A stretch of 64,000 nucleotides of DNA from a virus. A program made the position numbers and the translations under genes. Below are positions 1 through 64,000 of this stretch, in pieces. The notes beneath the pieces were generated by a model. That model saw only the letters and a list, made by a program, of their open reading frames with translations. It made no database searches and was not told the DNA's origin. How positions within the stretch are numbered: the first letter of the stretch is position 1; each line of letters opens with the position of its first letter. The stretch spans positions 1 through 64,000 of IMG/VR virus record IMGVR_UViG_3300032093_000021; one strand, written 5' to 3'.

Positions 1-357
1 AAACGCCGTGACGTAGTAATCATGAAGACCACTTATAGAAACTGATGACCCATCCGAATTATTCAAGGTCAAAGTATTCGCACTATAATTTAATGTCCCT
101 CCTGTCACAGTTGTCCCACCTGTTCCACCTGAAATAGGTTGCCAACTAGCATTTCCACTGGCGTCAGATGTTAAAACATACCCGTTACTCTCTGATCCAT
201 CTTGGTATCTGAATGAATTGAGAATCGTCAATCCCGAAGAAAAAATTGGATTAATCGGAATCGCACCACCAATCCTATAAACAACACCGGTTGTTAGATC
301 CGATTGTAAAACGTAATTAAACGAATCCTTAATTAATTGACCTGAAATATTAGACAT
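1..357 (-). CDS. Tail fibre-like protein, N-terminal part (runs off window)
   Basis: Manual translation MSNISGQLIK...GYVLTSDASGNASWQPISGGTGG, a motif typical of phage fibres; no stop before the edge; TATTTATC upstream. Confidence 0.6.
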   Translation of the reverse strand, partial: MSNISGQLIKDSFNYVLQSDLTTGVVYRIGGAIPINPIFSSGLTILNSFRYQDGSESNGYVLTSDASGNASWQPISGGTGGTTVTGGTLNYSANTLTLNNSDGSSVSISGLHDYYVTAF

Positions 358-436
358 ACGTAATAAAGATAAATACTTTAGATTCTAAATAAATAAAAGG
401 GGTTGATAAACGTAATTTGAATCATATTTATATGGT

Positions 437-1636
437 ATGAGAAATATTATAATTACAGAATCAAAGTTTAACGAATTAGTTGAATTACTTATGAATGAAG
501 CGGTTGGTGTTCCTGAGAATATTCTTGAAGTATCTGAAGAAATATATAAAAGTTTGTTAGATGAAATTGATAATTTAACATCAGTTGAGGAACAATATGT
601 TTTTAATCTTTCATCCGATTACAGAGTCTCCGATGAAAGTTTTTCAGATTTGAATGTAACACTTATGATTAATTCAGATCCATCGGTTGTGGAACCTTCA
701 ATAGTATCAATGGGACTTGCTTTAAAATCTGCAACCAGAAAAAGTGATTTCAGATTGCAACACGTATTTAACAATTTGGAGGAAATGAGTATCATTCTTT
801 CATTTCCTGAAAATTGGAATTTGGATGATTTAAAAACTTTTTTTATTGAGAACGAATCTGAATTCTTGTCTTCCTTTGCTCACGAGGTTAAACATACTTT
901 TGATTTCAGAAAGAAAAAAGTTGAGAAGTCTGAACCCCACGCTGATTATAAATCCTACGCCGAATTAAGTATCGGAATACCTCCTATAGATAAATTTCTT
1001 TTTTCTTTATATTTCATACATTCTATTGAAAATTTAGTTAGACCTGTAGAGCTTGCATCTTTATTGAAAAGTCATAATGTAACTAGAAAGGAGTTTTATG
1101 ATTATTTTATTGAAACAAAACTTTTTACCACACTAAAAAGAATACAAACTGACACTTACGAAAATTTCAGAGAGGAAATAGGCCAATATTTACCTGACTT
1201 AAGAGATTACCTTAGTACAACCAAAGGACTCAATGATTTAGATCAAATGACAGATGATGAAGTAATTGATATTGTTTTGAATTTAACCTACGAAGCGATT
1301 GCAAACGCAAAATTCAATATAATGATGCAAATGTTACTTGATTCTCCCTTAGAACTAGTAATGGGATTTGCAGGGTCCAAAGATCAATTTTTCAAAAAGT
1401 TTATGAGAAATGTTATTAAATATAAAAACAATCCGAATGAATTTTTTATTTCAGAATTTAATAATTTCAAGATTGTTTCAACAAAAATGATAAAGAAATT
1501 ATCAAAGTTATTTTCAATAGTACCGGTTAAAAAAACTGAGACCACCGAATCAAAGTCAATCAAAAATTGGGACTTACATCATAAGTACAAAGGGACAAAA
1601 AAATTATTCCCTATAAAACGAAAAACCACAACTTAA
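437..1636 (+). CDS. Hypothetical zincin-like (HExxH) protein with IITES leader
   Basis: FAHEVKH motif; N-terminus MRNIIITES; TATTTATA 4 nt before ATG. Confidence 0.55.
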   Translation: MRNIIITESKFNELVELLMNEAVGVPENILEVSEEIYKSLLDEIDNLTSVEEQYVFNLSSDYRVSDESFSDLNVTLMINSDPSVVEPSIVSMGLALKSATRKSDFRLQHVFNNLEEMSIILSFPENWNLDDLKTFFIENESEFLSSFAHEVKHTFDFRKKKVEKSEPHADYKSYAELSIGIPPIDKFLFSLYFIHSIENLVRPVELASLLKSHNVTRKEFYDYFIETKLFTTLKRIQTDTYENFREEIGQYLPDLRDYLSTTKGLNDLDQMTDDEVIDIVLNLTYEAIANAKFNIMMQMLLDSPLELVMGFAGSKDQFFKKFMRNVIKYKNNPNEFFISEFNNFKIVSTKMIKKLSKLFSIVPVKKTETTESKSIKNWDLHHKYKGTKKLFPIKRKTTT

Positions 1637-1652
1637 TGTTGTGGTTCTTTTT
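1624..1652. terminator. Bidirectional intrinsic terminator
   Basis: aaccacaac-ttaat-gttgtggtt flanked by A and T runs between convergent genes. Confidence 0.7.
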
Positions 1653-2108
1653 TTACTTGAGAAATCTCAATTTATATAGTGTGGATTGGATTAACTGAAT
1701 AACGTTATCAATTTGATTATCAAGATAAGAATCTTTAACATCTTTTCTCAATTTTTCTACGAGAGATGCCAGATCTTGGAAATATGTAATTGTCTTTTCA
1801 ACACTTTCAAATTGTTTTACGCCATCGCAAGTGTAGTTTTCTATGATTCCGTATTTGCCTTGGTATGATTCAACAAGATCATCCATAATACCTACAATCC
1901 CGGAATAATAATCTTCATAAGCTTTGTGAGCCGCAAAACTACCGGTCTTAATAACTTGCCAGTGAAATATCTGAACCTGATTTCTTGAAGTTAAAAGTTT
2001 GGATATCATCTTTTCGAATCCTTTAGAACCTTTTTCTGATTGTTCAGAAATCATATCACTTCTCAATTTGAGAGTTAAAATATCTTTTTTTGTCATTTCT
2101 TTTTCCAT
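1653..2108 (-). CDS. Ferritin/Dps-like protein (DUF5856-like)
   Basis: FHWQ...AHKAYEDYY...DDLVESYQG four-helix iron-binding pattern. Confidence 0.75.
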   Translation of the reverse strand: MEKEMTKKDILTLKLRSDMISEQSEKGSKGFEKMISKLLTSRNQVQIFHWQVIKTGSFAAHKAYEDYYSGIVGIMDDLVESYQGKYGIIENYTCDGVKQFESVEKTITYFQDLASLVEKLRKDVKDSYLDNQIDNVIQLIQSTLYKLRFLK

Positions 2109-2129
2109 TTTGTATTTTACTATAAATAT

Positions 2130-2330
2130 CTATTTTATATCTAAAATAAATTTCTCAGTGTCCTTTATTTTTTTCATCACTTCTTCAACAGTATCGTCTG
2201 TGTAAACACCATTACCATCCATAGTGTAAACAACTGTCTGAACTCCCACTTTTCTAATTCTTATGATGAATGTAGGATTAACTAATTCAAAATCATCATT
2301 TCTCTTTAATTTGATAAATTTAGTAGTCAT
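2130..2330 (-). CDS. FlbD/SwrD-like small protein
   Basis: FIKL...LVNPTFI...TVVYTMDG...VEEVMKKI pattern. Confidence 0.5.
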   Translation of the reverse strand: MTTKFIKLKRNDDFELVNPTFIIRIRKVGVQTVVYTMDGNGVYTDDTVEEVMKKIKDTEKFILDIK

Positions 2331-2563
2331 CTTTTTTCAATTATATATTTTCCATTAATATAAACATTTTTTCCTTCTGAGTCAATAAACCTAATACCAT
2401 CAGGAGTTGTCTCAACCTTATCTGTTCTATATCTATGTCTATCCTGATAGATAAAAATATTGTAAGGTTCCATTTTCTTTTCATTCTTTATACCAGCATA
2501 AAGTAAAAATGTAAAAAAACATGTTACAAGGAAAGAAAGAAGTAATTTTTGAATTGTTGTCAT
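2327..2563 (-). CDS. Hypothetical membrane-anchored protein
   Basis: N-terminal hydrophobic helix; ATGA-coupled. Confidence 0.6.
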   Translation of the reverse strand: MTTIQKLLLSFLVTCFFTFLLYAGIKNEKKMEPYNIFIYQDRHRYRTDKVETTPDGIRFIDSEGKNVYINGKYIIEKR

Positions 2564-2564
2564 A

Positions 2565-2960
2565 TTATTTTAATTTTTTGACGTAATATCTAATGTTTAT
2601 CTTATCATTGAACCAAGTGACCGACAACATACTTTCACCATTTTTGAAGTCAACTACATGGATGGTGCATTTAGTTTCTGTGACAAACTCGTAACCGTCA
2701 TATGAGTTTCCCTTGAAAGTGTTCCCGGATATATCCACAGATTCATCATCAACTAGAAAGTAAGCATTTTCCTTTGCTTGAACATGTATAAATCTTTTAT
2801 AGATGTGAATAGGTATATCAACATCTTCGTTGGTTGAACTCAATTTCCAAGTGTTATTTTGCAAGCCATATATCTCTGTTCTATAAGCGCTGTATTTTGA
2901 TTGAGAGAATGTTGCAATTGTAATGAACAACGCGAAAATTAGTGTTGTGATTTTTTTCAT
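2565..2960 (-). CDS. Hypothetical secreted protein
   Basis: Sec signal MKKITTLIFALFITIATFS-Q with Gln at +1, typical of Bacteroidota. Confidence 0.65.
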   Translation of the reverse strand: MKKITTLIFALFITIATFSQSKYSAYRTEIYGLQNNTWKLSSTNEDVDIPIHIYKRFIHVQAKENAYFLVDDESVDISGNTFKGNSYDGYEFVTETKCTIHVVDFKNGESMLSVTWFNDKINIRYYVKKLK

Positions 2961-2965
2961 TTTTT

Positions 2966-4090
2966 TTAATTTGAGAGTGGTATTTTAATTGTTGGATGAC
3001 TTTGATAATTTTCAATTACAAAATCAGTATTATCTAAATGAGTTATAAGTGATAGATCTTCAGATAAGGTTCTATAGAACTCATCTGTCTTCATATGTTT
3101 AAGAGTTGGTAGTTTATATGGTTTTCTTGTTATCTGTTCTTTAACACCATCAATTTGATTATTATAGATATGACAATCACCCATATTTGTAATCAATTCA
3201 TCAGGAACCATATTAACCATTTTCGCAATAATCTCTAACAATAAAGCGTAAGATGCAATGTTAAACGGTGTTCCTAATGGGACATCTTGACTTCTGGCAT
3301 TATACATTAGAGAAATTGCTCGCTGTGGCCCATTTTTGAGTTTTTCTTCTAATGTTAATGTGTCAAAATCATTCAAATCCTTTTTAGTGGGAATCAAGTT
3401 AATTTTCTCATCCATACTCAACTCTCTTGTATAAACTTGGAATCCATAATGACAAGGTGGTAAAACCATTTGATCCAACTCACCTACATTCCAAGCATTA
3501 ACCATCAACCTACGACTATCAGGATTTGTTTTGAGTTCGGAGATTAGGTTTGCGATTTGGTCAATACCCGTTCTATATAAATTTTGATTCCATTTCTCAA
3601 AATTATCTGCATCTTCTTTTGTTAATTTCCATTTACCGTTCCAGTCTCTCCACTGCCTACCATATATCGGTCCTAGTTCACCCCACTTATTTGCAAACTC
3701 ATTATCGGTTTTGATTTTGTTGATGAATTCTTCTTTTGATTCTTTACTATTTAATAACTGTGTAACAGCCCGTTCCTTTGCTTCTGCAGGTTCAATTTTA
3801 ATGGTTTCGTTTAAGTATCTCTTATATGCATCACCATCCCAAATATGACAATCATTGTCTACAAGATATTTGATATTTGTATCACCACGTAGAAACCAAA
3901 GCAACTCAGTTATGATACCTTTGGTATACATTTTCTTTGTAGTTAATAATGGGAATCCTTCTTCCATTCGGTGAACTATTTTCCAACCGAATACAGATCT
4001 AGTACCTGTTTCAGTTCTATCACTCTTATTATTACCAAACACTAATATGTGTTCAAGTAGTTCTTTGTATTGTCTGTCTATATTATTCAT
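2966..4090 (-). CDS. thyA: Thymidylate synthase
   Basis: DRTETGT, ELLWFLRG, LGPIYG, RRLMVNAWN, LPPCH, RSQDVPLGTPFNIASY, GDCHIY. Confidence 0.97.
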   Translation of the reverse strand: MNNIDRQYKELLEHILVFGNNKSDRTETGTRSVFGWKIVHRMEEGFPLLTTKKMYTKGIITELLWFLRGDTNIKYLVDNDCHIWDGDAYKRYLNETIKIEPAEAKERAVTQLLNSKESKEEFINKIKTDNEFANKWGELGPIYGRQWRDWNGKWKLTKEDADNFEKWNQNLYRTGIDQIANLISELKTNPDSRRLMVNAWNVGELDQMVLPPCHYGFQVYTRELSMDEKINLIPTKKDLNDFDTLTLEEKLKNGPQRAISLMYNARSQDVPLGTPFNIASYALLLEIIAKMVNMVPDELITNMGDCHIYNNQIDGVKEQITRKPYKLPTLKHMKTDEFYRTLSEDLSLITHLDNTDFVIENYQSHPTIKIPLSN

Positions 4091-4281
4091 AAATTTTTCA
4101 AATTTTCAATTATATTTTTATTCATCTCTGTGCAGAAATCTCGTTCAAGTATATTCTTTAGTGCTTCTTCCGCATCAACACCTGTTTCGCTTGTTGCCAT
4201 TTCAATACACTCATCATCTGTTTTGTTATGCCAAAAGGATAAATGTTTTAATAACTGATTACCATCTATTTTAAGATTCAT
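4087..4281 (-). CDS. Hypothetical protein
   Basis: ORF coupled to thyA. Confidence 0.55.
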   Translation of the reverse strand: MNLKIDGNQLLKHLSFWHNKTDDECIEMATSETGVDAEEALKNILERDFCTEMNKNIIENLKNL

Positions 4282-4510
4282 TTTCTACCGGATTGTTTTT
4301 ATATACCCACAAGTGATTATAACAATTTAATATGGTTAATTCAAGTTGAAATGCCGGACTATGATCATCTTCGTATCTGTCCCAATTAATATTGAACTTG
4401 AAGATGTTTATACCATCAGAGAATGGTCTGATTACTGCAAATAGTTGTATTTCCCAAAATAGATTCCTTTTCTTTGATAGTGTTCCGAATTTTACGATAC
4501 CTAAATTCAT
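4271..4510 (-). CDS. Hypothetical protein
   Basis: ORF in co-directional array. Confidence 0.55.
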   Translation of the reverse strand: MNLGIVKFGTLSKKRNLFWEIQLFAVIRPFSDGINIFKFNINWDRYEDDHSPAFQLELTILNCYNHLWVYKNNPVENES

Positions 4511-6604: not shown

Positions 6605-8470
6605 TTATTTTTTTATAAGTTTGAATGTAAAATTAGTCATTAAATCGTTATAAACCAAAACTTTTATGAAAAAAAATCCTGAACTTACTAAATTATTGAT
6701 ATTGAGTGTATTTTGACCATTAATAAATTTCCTTTGATCAAATACTAATTTACCGGATGCGTCGTAAATGAATACCTCTTGATCATATTTATATTTTCCG
6801 AAATCTGATATAAGATTTGAACCCTGAAGATAAACGTTTACTTTATTAGTTGAATTTATATTTGGATAGATTGTTCTGGTCTCATTTAGTTCCAAAACAC
6901 CATTAAAACTAAAACCCCATATCCAAAATTTTGAATTCGCCCCTCCATCTCCATCAACAACCAAATAATATGTTTTACCAATTTCAGAAGTAAAACAATG
7001 TTGTTGATTATATTGTGTTCCGGCGGTAGTTCCATATATTGAAGGTCTTGGACAAGAAACAACCTGCCAGTTTGGGTCATTAGTTGGAGTTTTTGATACT
7101 TGAGTGCATGGATCGTTATCATTATCTAAATTCACATCTGTAACAACTATACTTTGTAATGCCACACTAGTTCCACTAATACCACTAATGGATAAACACG
7201 TATTAGATGCTGTCGCAGTATATTTGATCCAAACATCATTATTATTTGCAAAGTTCCAACCACAGGTAGCACCTCCAATGGTTCCAAAACTATTGGTGTT
7301 AGGTCCTCCTAAAGAACCTGGCATCTGTGTGCTACCGGACATTCCCGTTGTGTTGGCACATATCGGAGAAGAACCATCCCATACTATAGGATTGGAGCAA
7401 TTATCTCCGGTTGTTCCTTGTGAAATAATATTAGGATCCCCAAAGAAAAGACGAATATCATCAATACAAGGTGGGAAAGCAGTCGTTTCACTAAATATAA
7501 TTTTCCAAGTTCCATCAGCGTTTCCTGTGAAATTAGAATAATAAGTAGGAGTTCCTTGATATTGAGCATTGAAATATCCATTTTTACCTATCGCAGTTAA
7601 TGGCGCTCCTCCATTAAAATCATTCAAAACATTTGGATTATTCAAACAAGTCGTAAAACTAACAAGATTAAGATAATGGGTTCCTGTTGCAGAGGTTGAT
7701 AATCCTCCACTGTATATACCATAACATGTTCCGTTAGGGGACATTATTCTGATCTGTAAAGCGTCAAAATTTTTAGTCCCGGTCCCACAATCATTAAGTC
7801 CTAAAGAAACTAGTAATAGCTGATTGACAGAAGTCATATTTCCAACACCACTAACAGGAATATTAAATACACTCGGAGATGAAGATCCGGGATTTGCACA
7901 AGAACCTGTAGCGTTATCAAGATTTATTATGGGATTATTATCAAGCGTAAATATTTTTCTCGGGGTAGTTGAAACAGTATATGAGAATATCGTAGCATTT
8001 GAAGCTGGTCTATTTTCAACGGAGCAAAAAGTTCTTGGGGCGTTTCCACAACCATTTCCAAATATTTCATCTCCTCCACCACTATGCCAAGCACTAACGA
8101 TATACTTTACTACAGTTCCCGCAGGTTGAGCCGGTATTGTCCCAAAAACAGCATCAACAACAGGAGAACCAAAGTTATGATCAAATGTTACATTTACAAC
8201 TTGTGTGGTTCCATTTCCAACACCAAAAGCCCCGGATGGATTACTTCCATCAGTTGTATAATAAATTCTTGCTTGATTCCAATAGAACTGAAATTCAATT
8301 TTGAATCCAATCTTTACTGATTGAGTTCTATTTGGTGTCATTACATCTCTGAATTGTAAGGATGTAAGTCCTATGGTATTTGTCGTTGCTTCATGATATA
8401 CATAATCCGCCTCAGCGAAACAAAATAAATGGATAAGAAGTCCTAATAGAAATATGAAAATTTTTTTCAT
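6605..8470 (-). CDS. Secreted multidomain protein with T9SS type A sorting domain
   Basis: Signal peptide; IYYTTDGSNP FN3-like unit; P-domain-like SPNGT...ADGTW; C-terminal IYDASGKLV...SGFFFIKV...FKLIKK. Confidence 0.75.
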   Translation of the reverse strand: MKKIFIFLLGLLIHLFCFAEADYVYHEATTNTIGLTSLQFRDVMTPNRTQSVKIGFKIEFQFYWNQARIYYTTDGSNPSGAFGVGNGTTQVVNVTFDHNFGSPVVDAVFGTIPAQPAGTVVKYIVSAWHSGGGDEIFGNGCGNAPRTFCSVENRPASNATIFSYTVSTTPRKIFTLDNNPIINLDNATGSCANPGSSSPSVFNIPVSGVGNMTSVNQLLLVSLGLNDCGTGTKNFDALQIRIMSPNGTCYGIYSGGLSTSATGTHYLNLVSFTTCLNNPNVLNDFNGGAPLTAIGKNGYFNAQYQGTPTYYSNFTGNADGTWKIIFSETTAFPPCIDDIRLFFGDPNIISQGTTGDNCSNPIVWDGSSPICANTTGMSGSTQMPGSLGGPNTNSFGTIGGATCGWNFANNNDVWIKYTATASNTCLSISGISGTSVALQSIVVTDVNLDNDNDPCTQVSKTPTNDPNWQVVSCPRPSIYGTTAGTQYNQQHCFTSEIGKTYYLVVDGDGGANSKFWIWGFSFNGVLELNETRTIYPNINSTNKVNVYLQGSNLISDFGKYKYDQEVFIYDASGKLVFDQRKFINGQNTLNINNLVSSGFFFIKVLVYNDLMTNFTFKLIKK

Positions 8471-12505: not shown

Positions 12506-13501
12506 TTATTGTTTTTTTGGATATAATACTATTAATGAGTAAATTCTCGTGTTATTTTCAAATTTACCACCTTTCAACTCTACTGCACCATATTCAGTAT
12601 TTTTACTTATCGTATTTTGACAAGATTGACATGATGACTCTCCAGGTAAATTAAATCTTAGGAAAAGACCATAAACCGGAGTATTTCCTAAATTGACTGA
12701 AAAAGTTTTCTTTTCCATGTCCAACTTGATTGAGGTTAAATCCAAACTTTTTCCTCTAGTTTGGTCTTTAATTTTTGTTTCAAGTTCATCAACAGTTTGT
12801 GCTTGAATATTAATGGTTCCAGATCCACTTTGATTATTTGTATTTTTGTTTGTACTAGATCCCGCTTGAATTGGATAACCTTTAGTTGTTCCTATTTGTA
12901 CACCATTTTTATCTAAAATTGGAGTATCCACGATTTGTCTGTAGTAAAAATAGGTTTCATAAATTGGTGATGATTTACCTCCTTGGGCTACAATAGGGTT
13001 TTGATTTTTTTTGAAAAATGCATATTTTGAAGGATCACTTTGAAATGCAGATGGAATTGCCACCCCTCTATGTCCCCAACCACCTCTACCATCAAAGCTA
13101 GTTATTGCTTTATCCTCAGTCGTTGCACTTAACGGAATTTTTATTTCCAAGAAATTATCATCTTTTGTCATGGTTATACCATCTAAATCAGGAATTACGT
13201 AAGTTCCTGAGTTGTACAATTCCTTGAGGTAATCACCAGTCACTTTTTTAGCAACCGCAGTTGCTTGATGTATTGAATCACCTTTACTACCATCTTTATG
13301 TTGAATACAAAACCCAGTCTCAGGACCATTATATGTTACTTTTACCTCTGAAGCAGTTTTAGAAACATCAACTTTTGGTTTAGTAACTCCATCACCATTC
13401 TGATAATTTTCAAAATCGCACCTTATCTGTTCTGTGATCAGTCCATACATCTTACGAATTTCGTATTTTTCTGACTCAGTAATTATAAATCTTCCTCCCA
13501 T
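12506..13501 (-). CDS. Hypothetical protein with IITESE leader
   Basis: MGGRFIITESEKYEIRKMYGLITEQ; TATTTATG 4 nt before ATG. Confidence 0.65.
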   Translation of the reverse strand: MGGRFIITESEKYEIRKMYGLITEQIRCDFENYQNGDGVTKPKVDVSKTASEVKVTYNGPETGFCIQHKDGSKGDSIHQATAVAKKVTGDYLKELYNSGTYVIPDLDGITMTKDDNFLEIKIPLSATTEDKAITSFDGRGGWGHRGVAIPSAFQSDPSKYAFFKKNQNPIVAQGGKSSPIYETYFYYRQIVDTPILDKNGVQIGTTKGYPIQAGSSTNKNTNNQSGSGTINIQAQTVDELETKIKDQTRGKSLDLTSIKLDMEKKTFSVNLGNTPVYGLFLRFNLPGESSCQSCQNTISKNTEYGAVELKGGKFENNTRIYSLIVLYPKKQ

Positions 13502-13523
13502 AATTCATAAATATCTATGGGCA

Positions 13524-13565
13524 CAAAAAAACCTCCAACTTTTTTCTACAAAAATCAGAGGTTTT
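13524..13565 (-). terminator. Terminator downstream of the large ncRNA
   Basis: AACCTC...GAGGTT stem followed by T run on minus strand. Confidence 0.6.
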
Positions 13566-13595
13566 ACTATATAGCAATAGGGGTATTGAAAAAAA

Positions 13596-14430
13596 CGCTG
13601 AGATTACACGTTAGTTCAGAGAATCTTTCGAAGGATTATTTGGTTCCCTTCTTATCCACTTCCTTTTGAGAAGTAATCCTCAATGACGATTGATTGGGTC
13701 AATCACACCTAAAGGTTTCAATTACTCTCTCATTACTCAACTCTCTTCGAAGATGCCTCCCCGACGCGTCCTTGCGGGACTAGAGGTTTTTGGTAAGAAT
13801 ACACTCAGACTTGCGATCCTTGTGTGCAATGAACGGCTCATTACTATGTAGTCACCTTTCATTGAAACCTGACGAACACTTTTGCTTAATTGATTTAATG
13901 GACTTAAATGCATTAAGTTTTGTGTTGCGAATGTGTCGAAGTAGTGGTTCGTCTTAGGCTTCGTTATCTTTTGAACAACGAAATACCAAACTACTCCGTG
14001 AGATGTCCCCACCTCCTTGCTTCAAGTAAACTTCATAACTCATACCCTTGGTAGGGTTAAGGTTAAGGACTCCAACAGCACCACCTGTACGGGATCATAC
14101 CTTTCGGTTTTAAGCTTACTTTAGTAATGGAGACCGCAATCGTGTTGTCGGATAACAACATATCTTACAGGAATCCTATGGGTTATTCTTATTGATCTTC
14201 CGACCTCAATCCGAGAATTCGCGTCCCCGGATCATCTAACCACTCCCCCTACAGTGTTACCCTCGGTACTAGAGGTTAGATGATATCCCACTTGTATACT
14301 CGAGTTCCATTTCTGAAACCGCAAAGTCATTAACACAGATGACTTCACTTTATCTCACTTTCGTGGTTTATTTAAGGACCATATACGGCCCATTACCTTT
14401 ATCAAATGACCGAAGTCAGATGAACGGATA
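13596..14430 (-). ncRNA. Large ornate structured RNA, GOLLD-like (~830 nt; ends approximate)
   Basis: No credible ORF; GC-richer than flanks; many hairpins with minus-strand UUCG/GNRA loops; 11-bp perfect helix 14231-41/14274-84; next to tRNA; own promoter and terminator. Confidence 0.75.
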
Positions 14431-14439
14431 ATTATTTTA

Positions 14440-14451
14440 ATTCAAAGAACT
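14440..14451 (-). promoter_or_regulatory. boxA-like antitermination element AGTTCTTTGAAT
   Basis: Resembles rRNA-leader boxA; about 10 nt before ncRNA; analogous AGATCTTTAAAA at 14731-14742 before tRNA. Confidence 0.55.
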
Positions 14452-14595
14452 GTTAAGTTAGACAAGAAGAGGAATCTTTACGACCACTCACTAACCTCCA
14501 CTTATAATCACCGGTTTTTGTCTGATTTTAGAGACTCATTCCGGTAGGACTGAGAGTAGTGGAACCTTTACAACCCCTTCTCGTCTTTTGTTTCA

Positions 14596-14627
14596 CAAAG
14601 GTAAGAAAGGTTTTTCAAACTTCCAAA
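14596..14627 (-). promoter_or_regulatory. Bacteroidota consensus promoter for ncRNA
   Basis: TTTG-N20-TACCTTTG. Confidence 0.8.
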
Positions 14628-14650
14628 TCTTTTTTTGAAACTTTTTTTTG

Positions 14651-14722
14651 TTGCGGCGATTGGATTCGAACCAATGATCCCTAGGTTATGAGCCTAGTGA
14701 GATACCACTTCTCCACGCCACG
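14651..14722 (-). tRNA. tRNA-Met(CAT), initiator type
   Basis: Cloverleaf CGTGGCG...CTAGG-CTCATAA-CCTAG...ATTGG-TTCGAAT-CCAAT-CGCCGCAA; C1:A72 mismatch; CCA not encoded. Confidence 0.93.
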
Positions 14723-14793
14723 ATATAATATTTTAAAGATCTTTCAAATTAAGGATGAGTTGAGTATTTCGTCCCTCATCCCCATTTGTTTCA

Positions 14794-14824
14794 CAAAGAT
14801 AAGAAGTCATTTCCAAACTTCAAA
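14794..14824 (-). promoter_or_regulatory. Bacteroidota consensus promoter for tRNA
   Basis: TTTG-N19-TATCTTTG; the block is a near-duplicate of 14588-14648. Confidence 0.8.
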
Positions 14825-15064
14825 ATCTTTTTGAAAAATTTTTTTGGTCATCAAATACAACAGACAATTTATGGACCTCCACTCTTGGGTCAGGTTTGCC
14901 CGGTTATCAGAACCAAAATTTCTCAATTCTTACCGATGAGATTACAAAGATAATGAATTAAGAGATACCAATCTATATATAAGGAAAATTGTGTTATATA
15001 AATATATTCAACTTACTGAAAAATCAATCTTTTTTTTTAATTTTTTTTTACATATTTATATGTA

Positions 15065-15412
15065 ATGAAAATCAGAATTGGAAATAATACATTCAAAGTA
15101 AAAACCTTAATTGATAAGAAATCCCAATCTATCGGAATGATGGGTAAAAGATTTGATGATACCTTTAACGGATTACTTTTTATAATGGGTGGTGATAAAC
15201 AATGTTTTTGGATGAAAAACTGCGTAATTCCTTTAGATATTATTATTATTAAAAATAATGTAATTGTTAATATACATCACGATTGTCCTCCTTGTCATAA
15301 TGATCCCTGCGCGTCTTACTGCGGAAATGGAAACATTGTTTTAGAACTTGAGGGTGGTACTTGTGAAGAGTTGGGTATAGAACCCGGAGATGTGATTAAA
15401 TATTTATTTTAA
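15065..15412 (+). CDS. DUF192 family protein
   Basis: GMMG..GLLF..FWMKN..IPLDII..VLELEGG. Confidence 0.85.
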   Translation: MKIRIGNNTFKVKTLIDKKSQSIGMMGKRFDDTFNGLLFIMGGDKQCFWMKNCVIPLDIIIIKNNVIVNIHHDCPPCHNDPCASYCGNGNIVLELEGGTCEELGIEPGDVIKYLF

Positions 15413-54371: not shown

Positions 54372-56153
54372 TTATATTAAACCATTATCTATTATTATCC
54401 AATTATTAGGTGCCGAAGTTAAAATACTTTTAGCAGAACTTGCGATGTTGTTGTAGTTCTGTGAAACATTCATCTGAACATTCGGTTTCAGAGTCAATAC
54501 TGACCAATCTATTAACAGATTATTGTAGTTTGTTATACTAAAACTACTTCCTGATAAAAATCCACTCAAGTTTGTAACATTTATTGGTTTCCATGTTTGT
54601 AAAGTTTGGTTAAAATTTGAAGAATTTCTAAACATATCCTCCATTGTAGTTACACCTGTGACATTCCAAGTTGATAGATCTTTGTTAAATTGTGAAGCTC
54701 CTTCAAACATACTTTCCATAGTCGTAACTTTAGATACATCCCACGATCCAATTGGTTGATTAAATGAAACAGCATTTGTAAATACCCCTTCCATCAAAGT
54801 GACAGCACTTGTAGTCCAACCACTTATATTGGGGGATCCTAAATTATTAAAGATTGATGCCCCATTAAACATATTTCTGAATGTTTTAACATTACTTACA
54901 TCCCAATTACTCAAATCCTGATTAAACATAACCGCACTTCCAAACATTGATCTCAAACCTTGACTGAAACCACAACAAGTATTCACTTTTTTTACATTCC
55001 AATTACCTAATGGTTGATTAAATTTGTCTGTTGAGAAAAACATATGTCCCATCTCTTCAGCCGATGAAGTATTCCAATTATTTATAGTTGGAGACGAATT
55101 ATTGTTGAATTTTTTTGCATCATGGAACATATAACCAAAGAATTTTACTTTTGAAACATTCCATTTTCCAATGTTCCTATTAAAGTTATATGCATTATAA
55201 AACATATAATTCATTTTAGTTACACTTGATGTGTCCCAATCATTTATTGTATCACTTCCGTTATTGTCAAAATTTGTTGCCCCTGCAAACATAAATTGCA
55301 TATCAGCACAAAATAATGTTTTCCAATTCCCTATATTTTTATTAAATTGAGTTGCACTTTCAAACATGCTTTGCATCGTGGTTACATTGTTTGTTGTCCA
55401 ACCACTTAAGTCTGAATTGAAAACAGTTGCATTTTTGAAGGTATAACTCATGTTATTTACCTTTGAAGTGTCCCATTGGCTTACCTTATTTATACTTGAT
55501 AGACTTGTACACGACTCAAATAAACTTGAAAACGATGTCATACCTGAAGTGTTTAGGGTATCAACAACATTCGGAATATTGAGATTGGTACAAGCCGAAA
55601 AATGCCCTGTTGAATTCCCGAGCTGTATGGGTCCCCACTTTAAAATTTCCAATAATTTTAATCTATCGGAAGGATCTATTTTATAGTTCCACCCTATAAA
55701 GTTACCCGGAAAACTATAAATTTTTATTTCATATACACCAGTTGATGCATAGGTATGTGTTTTTTTAACATCATTCCAATTTTTTATATTATCCCAAGGC
55801 CCCCCATCTCCCCAATCAACATATATGTCGTAAATACCTGAAGATATTAGTGGTAATTTCACTTGATTATTACTGGTTGTTCCGGGTTTGGTTGTATCTA
55901 TTTTGAAATGAAAATATTGCGGTTCTTCAATTTCTATTTCAGCGCATAGATTGTTATTGTCTACAATTTTGAGTTTTGTGGTGCCAATAGGTATATTATT
56001 TAAGATCAATGGACAATTTGGTAACGTCAATTGAGAAACAGTCGTTGAGGTTATTTCAGAGATATAATAATCCTGATTGCCATAAATGACTATAGGATCT
56101 ACCAAGTTATTGGCACCAATATCATCCAAACAAATTGCAACTTCAAATGTCAT
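54372..56153 (-). CDS. BspA/DUF285-repeat surface or tail protein
   Basis: VDWGDG PKD-like unit and many W.TS.V..M..MF...FN repeats. Confidence 0.88.
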   Translation of the reverse strand: MTFEVAICLDDIGANNLVDPIVIYGNQDYYISEITSTTVSQLTLPNCPLILNNIPIGTTKLKIVDNNNLCAEIEIEEPQYFHFKIDTTKPGTTSNNQVKLPLISSGIYDIYVDWGDGGPWDNIKNWNDVKKTHTYASTGVYEIKIYSFPGNFIGWNYKIDPSDRLKLLEILKWGPIQLGNSTGHFSACTNLNIPNVVDTLNTSGMTSFSSLFESCTSLSSINKVSQWDTSKVNNMSYTFKNATVFNSDLSGWTTNNVTTMQSMFESATQFNKNIGNWKTLFCADMQFMFAGATNFDNNGSDTINDWDTSSVTKMNYMFYNAYNFNRNIGKWNVSKVKFFGYMFHDAKKFNNNSSPTINNWNTSSAEEMGHMFFSTDKFNQPLGNWNVKKVNTCCGFSQGLRSMFGSAVMFNQDLSNWDVSNVKTFRNMFNGASIFNNLGSPNISGWTTSAVTLMEGVFTNAVSFNQPIGSWDVSKVTTMESMFEGASQFNKDLSTWNVTGVTTMEDMFRNSSNFNQTLQTWKPINVTNLSGFLSGSSFSITNYNNLLIDWSVLTLKPNVQMNVSQNYNNIASSAKSILTSAPNNWIIIDNGLI

Positions 56154-62132: not shown

Positions 62133-62312
62133 ATGAAACTTTTGAAAACTATACAAAAATTAGTTGAAGACGCAGAAAGAGATTATTATATCGCTTGTGA
62201 TAGGTGTGCTGATGAAAAAACAATTAAGAGATTAGAAAAAAATTATTTAGATAGTCTAAAACTGATGGAAAAAATAAATAAAATAGATACACCAAAAAAA
62301 GAAAATCTATAA
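62133..62312 (+). CDS. Small hypothetical protein (59 aa, absent from ORF track)
   Basis: MKLLKTIQKLVED...; TATTTATG 4 nt before ATG. Confidence 0.6.
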   Translation: MKLLKTIQKLVEDAERDYYIACDRCADEKTIKRLEKNYLDSLKLMEKINKIDTPKKENL

Positions 62313-64000
62313 TCCCCCATCTATTATAACCCAATTATAAGGACTTCCTGTAAGAGTGTTTCTACCTGATTGTCCTGCAACAGTATACTTTATAGTTCCA
62401 AAATTTATAGTCAATCCGGATTTTAATATCTTGCTTGACCAACTATTTAATAAACTATCATAATTTGCAGTTGAATAGTTTGAGAATGTTTTACCTGTCA
62501 TAAATCCTGTAAACGCAGTAACAGAAGATGCTGACCAACCACTTATAGGTTGGTTGAAAGCGATTGCATCATTGAACATATTAGTCATGTCCCTAACATT
62601 ACTAACATTCCAAGAATCTATTGGTTGATTGAATAATGAAGCACCCCTAAACATAGAAGTCATGTCTGTAACATTTGAGACGTTCCAACCGGATATTGAG
62701 GTAGATCCGGAATTGTTGAAAGATGAGTTTGATGCAAACATGGAATTCATGTTTGTTGCGGCAGATGTATTCCAACTACCGATATTTTGGTTAAACCCTG
62801 AACATGAAAGCATGGATGAAAAATTAGTCACCTTAGAAGTATTCCAGCTACCAATCGGTTGATTGAAACTTGTCCCTAAAAAAGTTGACCCAAAATCAAC
62901 AACGTTGCCCGTACTCCATCCACTTATTGAAGGGCTTCCTCCATTATTAAACGCAGATCCGAATGTTCTTCTAAAAAAAGTTGCCGCGGAAACATTCCAA
63001 GCTCCGATATCTTGATTGAATGGTGAACTGGCAAATGTGCTATGAAATCCATTACTGTTTGCAAACGAAGTTGTGACATTTCTTACATCCCAACTACCTA
63101 TGGGTTGATTAAAAGATGTTGCATAAAACATATGACCCATTTGAGTTGCCGCGGATGTTGTCCAACCACTAATAGAAGGGTTATTATTATTGTTAAATAA
63201 TGTTGCTTGTCCAAACATATAACCGAAAGCCTGAACTTTGGATACATTCCAAGAACCAACATTCCTATTGAATTTGACCGCATTGAAAAACATATAATTC
63301 ATGGCAGTGGCCGCAGAAGTAACCCAATTGTTAATTGAATTATTACCAGCATTATCAAAATTTGCAGCATTTTCAAACATCGTATTGAAGGTTGTGACTT
63401 TTGATGTATCCCAATTACCGATATTTTTATTAAACGTATTACAAGATGAAAACATTGATGCCATGGTTGTTACCGCGGATGTTGTCCATCCACTCAAATC
63501 GTCGTTAAAGAATGTACATCCTTGAAACATATTGCTCATGTTTGTAACATTTGAAGTGTTCCAAGAATTGACATTATTTATTGTAGTGAGACTTGTACAT
63601 GATCTAAACATTTGGGTCAGGTTTGTAGATCCACTTAAATTTATTACATCTGTTGTTCCTGTAAGTCTTAAATTGGAACAACCATAAAAGTAAGACCCCA
63701 AAAATGTCGCCCCTGTTGATTGAAGTTGTACAGGTCCCCACCTATTAACATGTAACATTTTTAACCTATCTCCCGAGTTATTAAATCTGAAACCTCTGAA
63801 ATTTCCCGGATAAGCGTATACCGTAACGTCATAAATTCCGGGAGTTGTATATGTATGTGCGGTTAATGGACTATTCCAAGTTGTTATATAATCTGTAGGG
63901 CCCGAATCTCCCCAATCAACTATCATATTATAAGTTCCCGCACTAACTAATGGAAGTGCAAACTGATTTGATGGCGAACTACCGACACTAGTTAATGTTG
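62307..64000 (-). CDS. BspA/DUF285-repeat protein, 5'-truncated by window edge
   Basis: Frame stays open past 63926 (..FALPLVSAGTYNMIVDWGD); paralogue of 54372..56153. Confidence 0.88.
   Translation of the reverse strand, partial: TLTSVGSSPSNQFALPLVSAGTYNMIVDWGDSGPTDYITTWNSPLTAHTYTTPGIYDVTVYAYPGNFRGFRFNNSGDRLKMLHVNRWGPVQLQSTGATFLGSYFYGCSNLRLTGTTDVINLSGSTNLTQMFRSCTSLTTINNVNSWNTSNVTNMSNMFQGCTFFNDDLSGWTTSAVTTMASMFSSCNTFNKNIGNWDTSKVTTFNTMFENAANFDNAGNNSINNWVTSAATAMNYMFFNAVKFNRNVGSWNVSKVQAFGYMFGQATLFNNNNNPSISGWTTSAATQMGHMFYATSFNQPIGSWDVRNVTTSFANSNGFHSTFASSPFNQDIGAWNVSAATFFRRTFGSAFNNGGSPSISGWSTGNVVDFGSTFLGTSFNQPIGSWNTSKVTNFSSMLSCSGFNQNIGSWNTSAATNMNSMFASNSSFNNSGSTSISGWNVSNVTDMTSMFRGASLFNQPIDSWNVSNVRDMTNMFNDAIAFNQPISGWSASSVTAFTGFMTGKTFSNYSTANYDSLLNSWSSKILKSGLTINFGTIKYTVAGQSGRNTLTGSPYNWVIIDGGL

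Follow-up and report, generated by a model that had tools for sequence, protein, structure and literature searches.

The large noncoding RNA encoded on the minus strand at positions 13595–14449 of the window, the 64-kb stretch of viral DNA analyzed here, is with high confidence a GOLLD RNA (Rfam RF02032). It is of the same two-domain type as env-38 GOLLD (JCVI_SCAF_1096627009515/1239-410), which cryo-EM resolved as a 14-mer (PDB 9MEE; Kretsch et al. 2025, PMC12286853), and its carrier is an uncultured jumbo phage with a probable Bacteroidota host. We demonstrate that both halves of the RNA belong to the GOLLD family, that its fold is supported by covariation, and that it sits in a phage genome beside a tRNA gene. 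GOLLD RNAs are among the few natural RNAs known to make a large cage without protein. The family, its association with phages and tRNAs, and its architecture are already in print, and the window copy is a canonical member, not a new class. All that stands out locally is an enlarged 5' stem-loop and a conserved 5' extension beyond the solved construct. Its value is as a well-delimited example with candidate promoter, 5' hairpin and terminators, carried by a jumbo phage whose host is probably a member of the Bacteroidota.

The RNA comprises the following parts:

14449–13595, minus strand: GOLLD RNA, conserved span, a large structured noncoding RNA
13595–13998, minus strand: GOLLD 3' domain, the universally conserved half (Rfam RF02032)
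13999–14393, minus strand: GOLLD 5' domain, env-38 type (collinearity by eye, nhmmer homology, covariation)
14394–14449, minus strand: conserved 5' extension, ahead of the first base of the env-38 cryo-EM construct (conservation in relatives)
14448–14441, minus strand: UCUUUGAA box in the 5' extension
14432–14427 with 14397–14392, minus strand: outer helix of the 5' extension (folding, weak support, z = -1.2)
14418–14407, minus strand: variable UGAC-UUCG-GUCA hairpin (read from the sequence)
14365–14356, minus strand: CAC-GAAA-GUG stem (read from the sequence)
about 14319–14304, minus strand: GUUUCA-GAAA-UGGAAC stem (read from the sequence)
about 14285–14233, minus strand: 11-bp perfect helix, AUCAUCUAACC with GGUUAGAUGAU (read from the sequence)
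14205–14194, minus strand: GGUC-GGAA-GAUC stem (read from the sequence)
14108–14099, minus strand: ACC-GAAA-GGU stem (read from the sequence)
13974–13968 and 13669–13663, minus strand: two UCAAAAG loops (read from the sequence)
about 13935–13880, minus strand: variable interior linker of the 3' domain

All of the motifs picked out by an earlier, sequence-only reading were found on the minus strand, at the positions it gave or neighboring ones. Of the ends it proposed, 13596 lies within 1 nt of the Rfam 3' end and 14430 falls inside the outermost 5' helix. Alignment of relatives with MAFFT gives a conserved span of ~800–860 nt, and ~700–850 nt is expected for the family.

Rfam identifies the 3' half. 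Scanning the whole window with Rfam 15 at gathering thresholds produced two matches, GOLLD at 13595–13998 and a tRNA at 14651–14722 (61 bits). The GOLLD match scored 324.1 bits (E = 4.7e-92; cut-off 150 bits) and spanned model positions 1–416 of 416 without truncation. The score under this structure-aware model is the structural support for the 3' domain. That domain also contains CGCAAG and CCGCAAGG loops which match, by motif, the self-kissing bridges B8 and B9 of env-38. A permissive scan of 13400–15100 at E up to 1 revealed no family beyond GOLLD and tRNA. ROOL, OLE, group I/II introns and other large Rfam RNAs are absent from that interval at the same threshold and were ruled out. The sequence-only reading had wavered between GOLLD and a new giant RNA class, and had named GOLLD, ROOL, OLE and intron models for comparison. 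Only GOLLD matched, at full length and with more than twice the gathering score; with an env-38-type 5' half, this decides for GOLLD and against the new class, and the strength of the match removes the novelty.

The Rfam model describes only the universally conserved 3' half, and the 5' half, from 13999 to ~14393, lies outside it. A motif scan of IMG/VR returned 119 loci, and nhmmer recognizes a complete GOLLD 3' domain in ~36 of these. Every such locus that reaches far enough also matches the 800 nt that precede the 3' domain in the window, and the 5' domain is common to all ~27 distinct GOLLD loci fetched, each from a distinct phage contig. Identity to the window in the MAFFT alignment climbs at ~14449 and reaches ~0.8 from 14398. 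RNAalifold analysis of 27 distinct 5' domains yielded 94 pairs in 20 helices, 66 of them with compensatory changes. Across this fold 96.9% of cells were paired, compared to 37–41% when partners were slid by 1–3 columns, and double changes occurred at 66 pairs, compared to 17–25 when slid; none of 500 shuffles reached the observed values. The covariation among homologs that the sequence-only reading had proposed as a check is thus present. Given the Rfam match of the 3' half and the homology and covariation of the 5' half, both halves therefore fall within the definition of the GOLLD family.

Two other identities for this stretch have little to recommend them. Confinement of the Rfam model to 13595–13998, with no database match of its own for the 5' 450 nt, would suit a new giant RNA class merely resembling GOLLD, or a GOLLD 3' domain fused to a novel 5' domain. 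We consider this very improbable, as residues 1–420 of env-38 line up by eye with the 5' half, which accompanies the 3' domain in each of the ~27 distinct loci. That the stretch is instead protein-coding or a decayed gene deserves next to no credence. Its best candidate would be a 91-codon GTG frame at 13737–14012, minus strand, the longest in the stretch, and this frame sits within the Rfam match. Among 37 related copies the longest frames run from 52 to 141 codons and switch strands, and base-pairing, not codons, governs the substitutions. The earlier statement that the stretch holds no credible ORF was correct: no open frame is conserved, and the longest ones vary in length and strand across copies. 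The window copy and its ~27 distinct relatives with an env-38-type 5' domain are useful for comparative work and leave the picture of the family unchanged.

The following elements surround the conserved span:

14794–14824, minus strand: tRNA-Met promoter, Bacteroidota-type (TTTG, ~19 nt, TATCTTTG), a role suggested by the consensus
14650–14722, minus strand: tRNA-Met, anticodon CAT (Rfam tRNA, 61 bits; ARAGORN on the window and the whole record)
14596–14627, minus strand: candidate GOLLD promoter (TTTG at -33, 20 nt, TACCTTTG at -7, then TGAAACAAA; consensus and relatives)
14460–14586, minus strand: 127-nt stem-loop at the transcript 5' end with a 13-bp closing stem (folding)
13589–13595, minus strand: seven-U run, first candidate 3' end, directly after the last GOLLD hairpin
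13522–13565, minus strand: intrinsic terminator, a 16-bp hairpin (13565–13528) and U-run (folding, z = -3.2)

The promoter units of GOLLD and tRNA-Met are near-identical, with TGAAACAAA after each. In most relatives TTG or TTTG, a spacer of ~19–21 nt, and TAnnTTTG precede the conserved 5' end of GOLLD (the UCUUUGAA box) by ~45 nt, with a short covarying hairpin between promoter and box. This promoter type (TTTG, spacer, TAnnTTTG) marks the Bacteroidota. A sigma-70 promoter scan and a simple terminator scan found nothing above chance; the relevant promoter type is Bacteroidota-like. The dedicated promoter and terminator claimed by the earlier reading are partly borne out: nothing of sigma-70 type exceeds chance, a Bacteroidota-type promoter lies farther upstream (14627–14596), and a strong terminator hairpin occupies 13565–13528. 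Over the whole window TANNTTTG is modestly enriched (127 observed, 102 expected) and its spaced form, TTG-N19-TANNTTTG, is not (3 versus 2.5 expected). With window-wide enrichment this weak, the promoter call depends on the near-identity of the two units and on the conservation seen in relatives. Within the 140-kb record the extended form (TTTG, spacer, TAnnTTTG, TGAAACAAA) is confined to the two RNA-gene units, whereas many protein genes have ATATTTAT directly before the start codon. These distinct motifs suggest that its RNA genes and protein genes may use different polymerases or sigma factors.

At the other end of the gene, relatives keep the U-run at the GOLLD 3' end except where a tRNA follows at once. 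The terminator at 13522–13565, found by folding and missed by the simple terminator scan, precedes the next ORF (start codon at 13501). We infer from these sequence elements that the RNA is expressed, where it starts, and both of its candidate 3' ends. Host RNA polymerase would start near 14590 at the Bacteroidota-type promoter, run through the 5' stem-loop and then the ~860-nt conserved RNA, and stop at the U-run (13595–13589) or the terminator (13565–13528).

Further small units lie near promoters of this kind. A third TATCTTTG promoter-like box occurs at 14952–14945 on the minus strand, followed by a 106-nt unit (14940–14835, minus strand), which closes with an A/U-rich run immediately ahead of the tRNA promoter. 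This unit has no Rfam match, appears among the fetched loci only in L099, and could be a small unfamiliar RNA. Some relatives (e.g. L108, L112, L028, L038 and L111) carry two tandem promoters upstream of GOLLD, separated by a ~50-nt unit of the form AGGUUG...GUAAAA...UUUCCUAA-CCUC, then an A-run. Within the 5' stem-loop of the window, a comparable GUAAAG-UUCC motif appears at two places.

Apart from this tRNA-Met, the 140-kb record encodes no tRNA. The gene sits upstream of GOLLD at a distance of 220 nt from the conserved start, in accord with the earlier remark that GOLLD RNAs occur near tRNAs. No other tRNA-like element was detected in 13400–15100 at E up to 1. Unlike the window, where the CAT tRNA is upstream of GOLLD, many relatives (e.g. 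L108, L112, L055, L100, L033 and L097) have a CAT tRNA downstream, 5–20 nt past the last GOLLD hairpin. Relatives that lack an intervening U-run suggest that GOLLD and tRNA are co-transcribed and that the GOLLD end is formed by tRNA processing.

The window makes up the initial 64 kb of a linear IMG/VR virus record of 140,164 bases with an estimated completeness of 47%, and the full phage genome would therefore be ~300 kb. PHROG matches are phage-like and include a thymidylate synthase, an SbcC-like nuclease, a DNA methyltransferase and, weakly, a tail fibre, while most ORFs have no match. Of 56 ORFs, just 2 have a Shine-Dalgarno-like 4-mer upstream. Among GenBank phages the closest matches are LR756502.1 (642 kb) and LR745206.1 (634 kb), both with a GOLLD adjoining tRNAs, and Al-Shayeb et al. 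2020 predicted Bacteroidetes hosts for those of their phages whose genomes exceed 634 kb (PMC7162821). Promoter type, scarce Shine-Dalgarno sites and the related 634/642-kb phages indicate that the host is probably a member of the Bacteroidota, in support of the earlier assignment to a Bacteroidota phage. The C-terminus of a 621-aa protein (6605–8470, minus strand) matches the T9SS sorting domain Por_Secre_tail at 20.5 bits, below the cut-off of 27; this sub-threshold match agrees with a Bacteroidota host. Other genes in the window include two encoding paralogous large proteins (54372–56153 and 62307–63926, minus strand) that match, over several repeated stretches, PHROG families 17273, 22899, 3649 and 35701 in common, all of unknown function. 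A DUF192 (COG1430) protein (15065–15412; 74 bits) is encoded by one of the few plus-strand genes and diverges from the RNA cluster.

Scanning 185,579 bacterial species genomes for a 5'-domain motif returned eight places, two of them real GOLLD 5' domains. Both lie on short contigs of metagenome-assembled genomes (MAGs), one from Bacteroidetes (2 kb) and one from Methylocystis (0.5 kb), and such MAG-binned copies are weak evidence of host. As these are the only true copies, env-38-type GOLLD seems to reside on phage genomes rather than in prophages. A literature search joining GOLLD to jumbo-phage or Bacteroidota terms found no work naming GOLLD, a weak negative.

The env-38 structure is a closed cage of 14 copies with D7 symmetry, whose caps are built from 5' domains and whose rings are built from 3' domains, with the variable linker pointing inward (PMC12286853). 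Its supplement prints the construct sequence and the residues of the inter-subunit bridges (PMC12286853). We compared the window with env-38 by eye and by motif rather than by computed alignment; a stand-in for env-38 was sought among the fetched loci and not found. The following loops correspond:

14362–14359, minus strand: bridge B1, GAAA loop (motif match to env-38)
14201–14198, minus strand: bridge B3, GGAA loop (motif match to env-38)
14154–14150 with 14009–14006, minus strand: bridge B4, kissing pair of UAUCC with GGGA (motif match to env-38)
14105–14102, minus strand: L11a, GAAA, conserved, non-contacting and near-invariant (motif match to env-38)

The first UCAAAAG loop, which is A-rich, is the counterpart of bridge B6, and the two GCAA-type loops are those of B8 and B9, again by motif. 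The window thus holds the motifs of B1, B3, B6, B8, B9 and L11a, in a mapping made by motif only that leaves B7 and B10 without a confident placement. The earlier guess that the repeated loops mediate intermolecular contacts agrees with the env-38 structure, where the counterpart of the first UCAAAAG loop is a bridge (PMC12286853). The B4 kissing pair is shorter than its model, with ~3 Watson-Crick pairs (a GGA/UCC core) versus 5–6 in env-38. Of the 27 copies, 25 keep the L11a GAAA unchanged; in the other two, L038 and L033, a hairpin of ~14 nt is inserted within it. In the solved env-38 cage this loop faces the central opening (PMC12286853).

We predict by analogy with env-38 that the window RNA would fold into 5' and 3' domains, and that GNRA/A-minor contacts and kissing loops would link copies of it into a closed homo-oligomeric cage with the linker inward. 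Formation of such an env-38-like cage is likely. Its copy number would most plausibly be 14, as in env-38, and we rate exactly 14 at slightly better than an even chance; the number is a prediction because published GOLLDs vary among 10, 12 and 14 copies, set by small helices (PMC12990946). The RNA might alternatively be a true GOLLD that forms no closed 14-copy cage, existing as another oligomer (10 or 12), a monomer or a protein-bound scaffold, with the 5' stem-loop altering assembly. The dependence of published copy number on small helices leaves room for this, as do the reduced B4 complementarity and the added 127-nt 5' arm of this lineage, which has no counterpart in solved structures. Even the near-identical L099 (IMGVR_UViG_3300008107_008696, 1–4320), from another sample, lacks the 23 nt that make up the B1 GAAA-capped hairpin, either as a natural variant or through an assembly error. 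The remaining bridge loops and env-38-specific elements nevertheless appear present, and the 5' domain is near env-38 length (~395 versus 420 nt), so we judge the alternative unlikely and favor the closed cage. Published proposals for GOLLD include encapsulating or sequestering tRNAs, ribosomes or other cargo (PMC12286853, PMC12990946). Our best guess, offered tentatively, is that during infection the cage would hold or sequester cargo linked to translation, such as tRNA.

The 127-nt stem-loop (-42.3 kcal/mol, z = -3.2) occupies the place of a ~16-nt stem-loop in relatives. The record has one copy of it, of the 130 loci only L099 shares it, and Rfam has no match to it. The stem-loop could interfere with assembly or be removed. 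That it stays on the mature RNA and adds 14 extra arms to the GOLLD cage seems distinctly improbable. If it is retained, it would be a natural "payload" or adaptor insertion and could show what the cage binds.

Known systems resemble the window RNA to different degrees. Like ROOL and OLE, it is a large and ornate noncoding RNA from a self-assembling family, and ROOL is also phage-associated and found near tRNAs, but their sequences and folds are unrelated to those of the window RNA. Streptococcus agalactiae GOLLD, a 12-mer (PDB 9L0R; PMC12990946), shares both the family and the conserved 3' domain. However, it is ~700 nt long and lacks several 5' and 3' helices (P9, P11a-c and P21b; PMC12990946), whereas the window RNA has the full env-38-like length.

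The closest counterpart is env-38 itself. By eye the two are colinear from the first base of env-38, equivalent to window ~14393, onward. Shared landmarks begin in the 5' part with the hairpin GGCCG...GGUC, AAAUAAA, a GAAA-capped stem, GAUAAAGUG, GCGGUUUCA and GAGGGUAACAC, and continue with a GGAA-capped stem, AAUAAGAAUAAC, the UAUCC loop, a GAAA-capped stem, GGUGGUGC and the GGGA loop. They differ in that the cage of env-38 was seen by cryo-EM while the window RNA is known from sequence alone, and in that the window core is ~30 nt shorter, its 5' domain being ~395 nt as opposed to 420. The solved construct includes neither the conserved 55-nt 5' extension of the window RNA nor its 127-nt 5' stem-loop, which is specific to this lineage. 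In other respects the two agree: both have the two-domain layout with 3' domains that match one Rfam model, GAAA, GGAA, UCAAAAG and GCAA-type loops occupy, by motif, corresponding places, and both RNAs lie downstream of a tRNA-Met in phages of aquatic or metagenomic origin.
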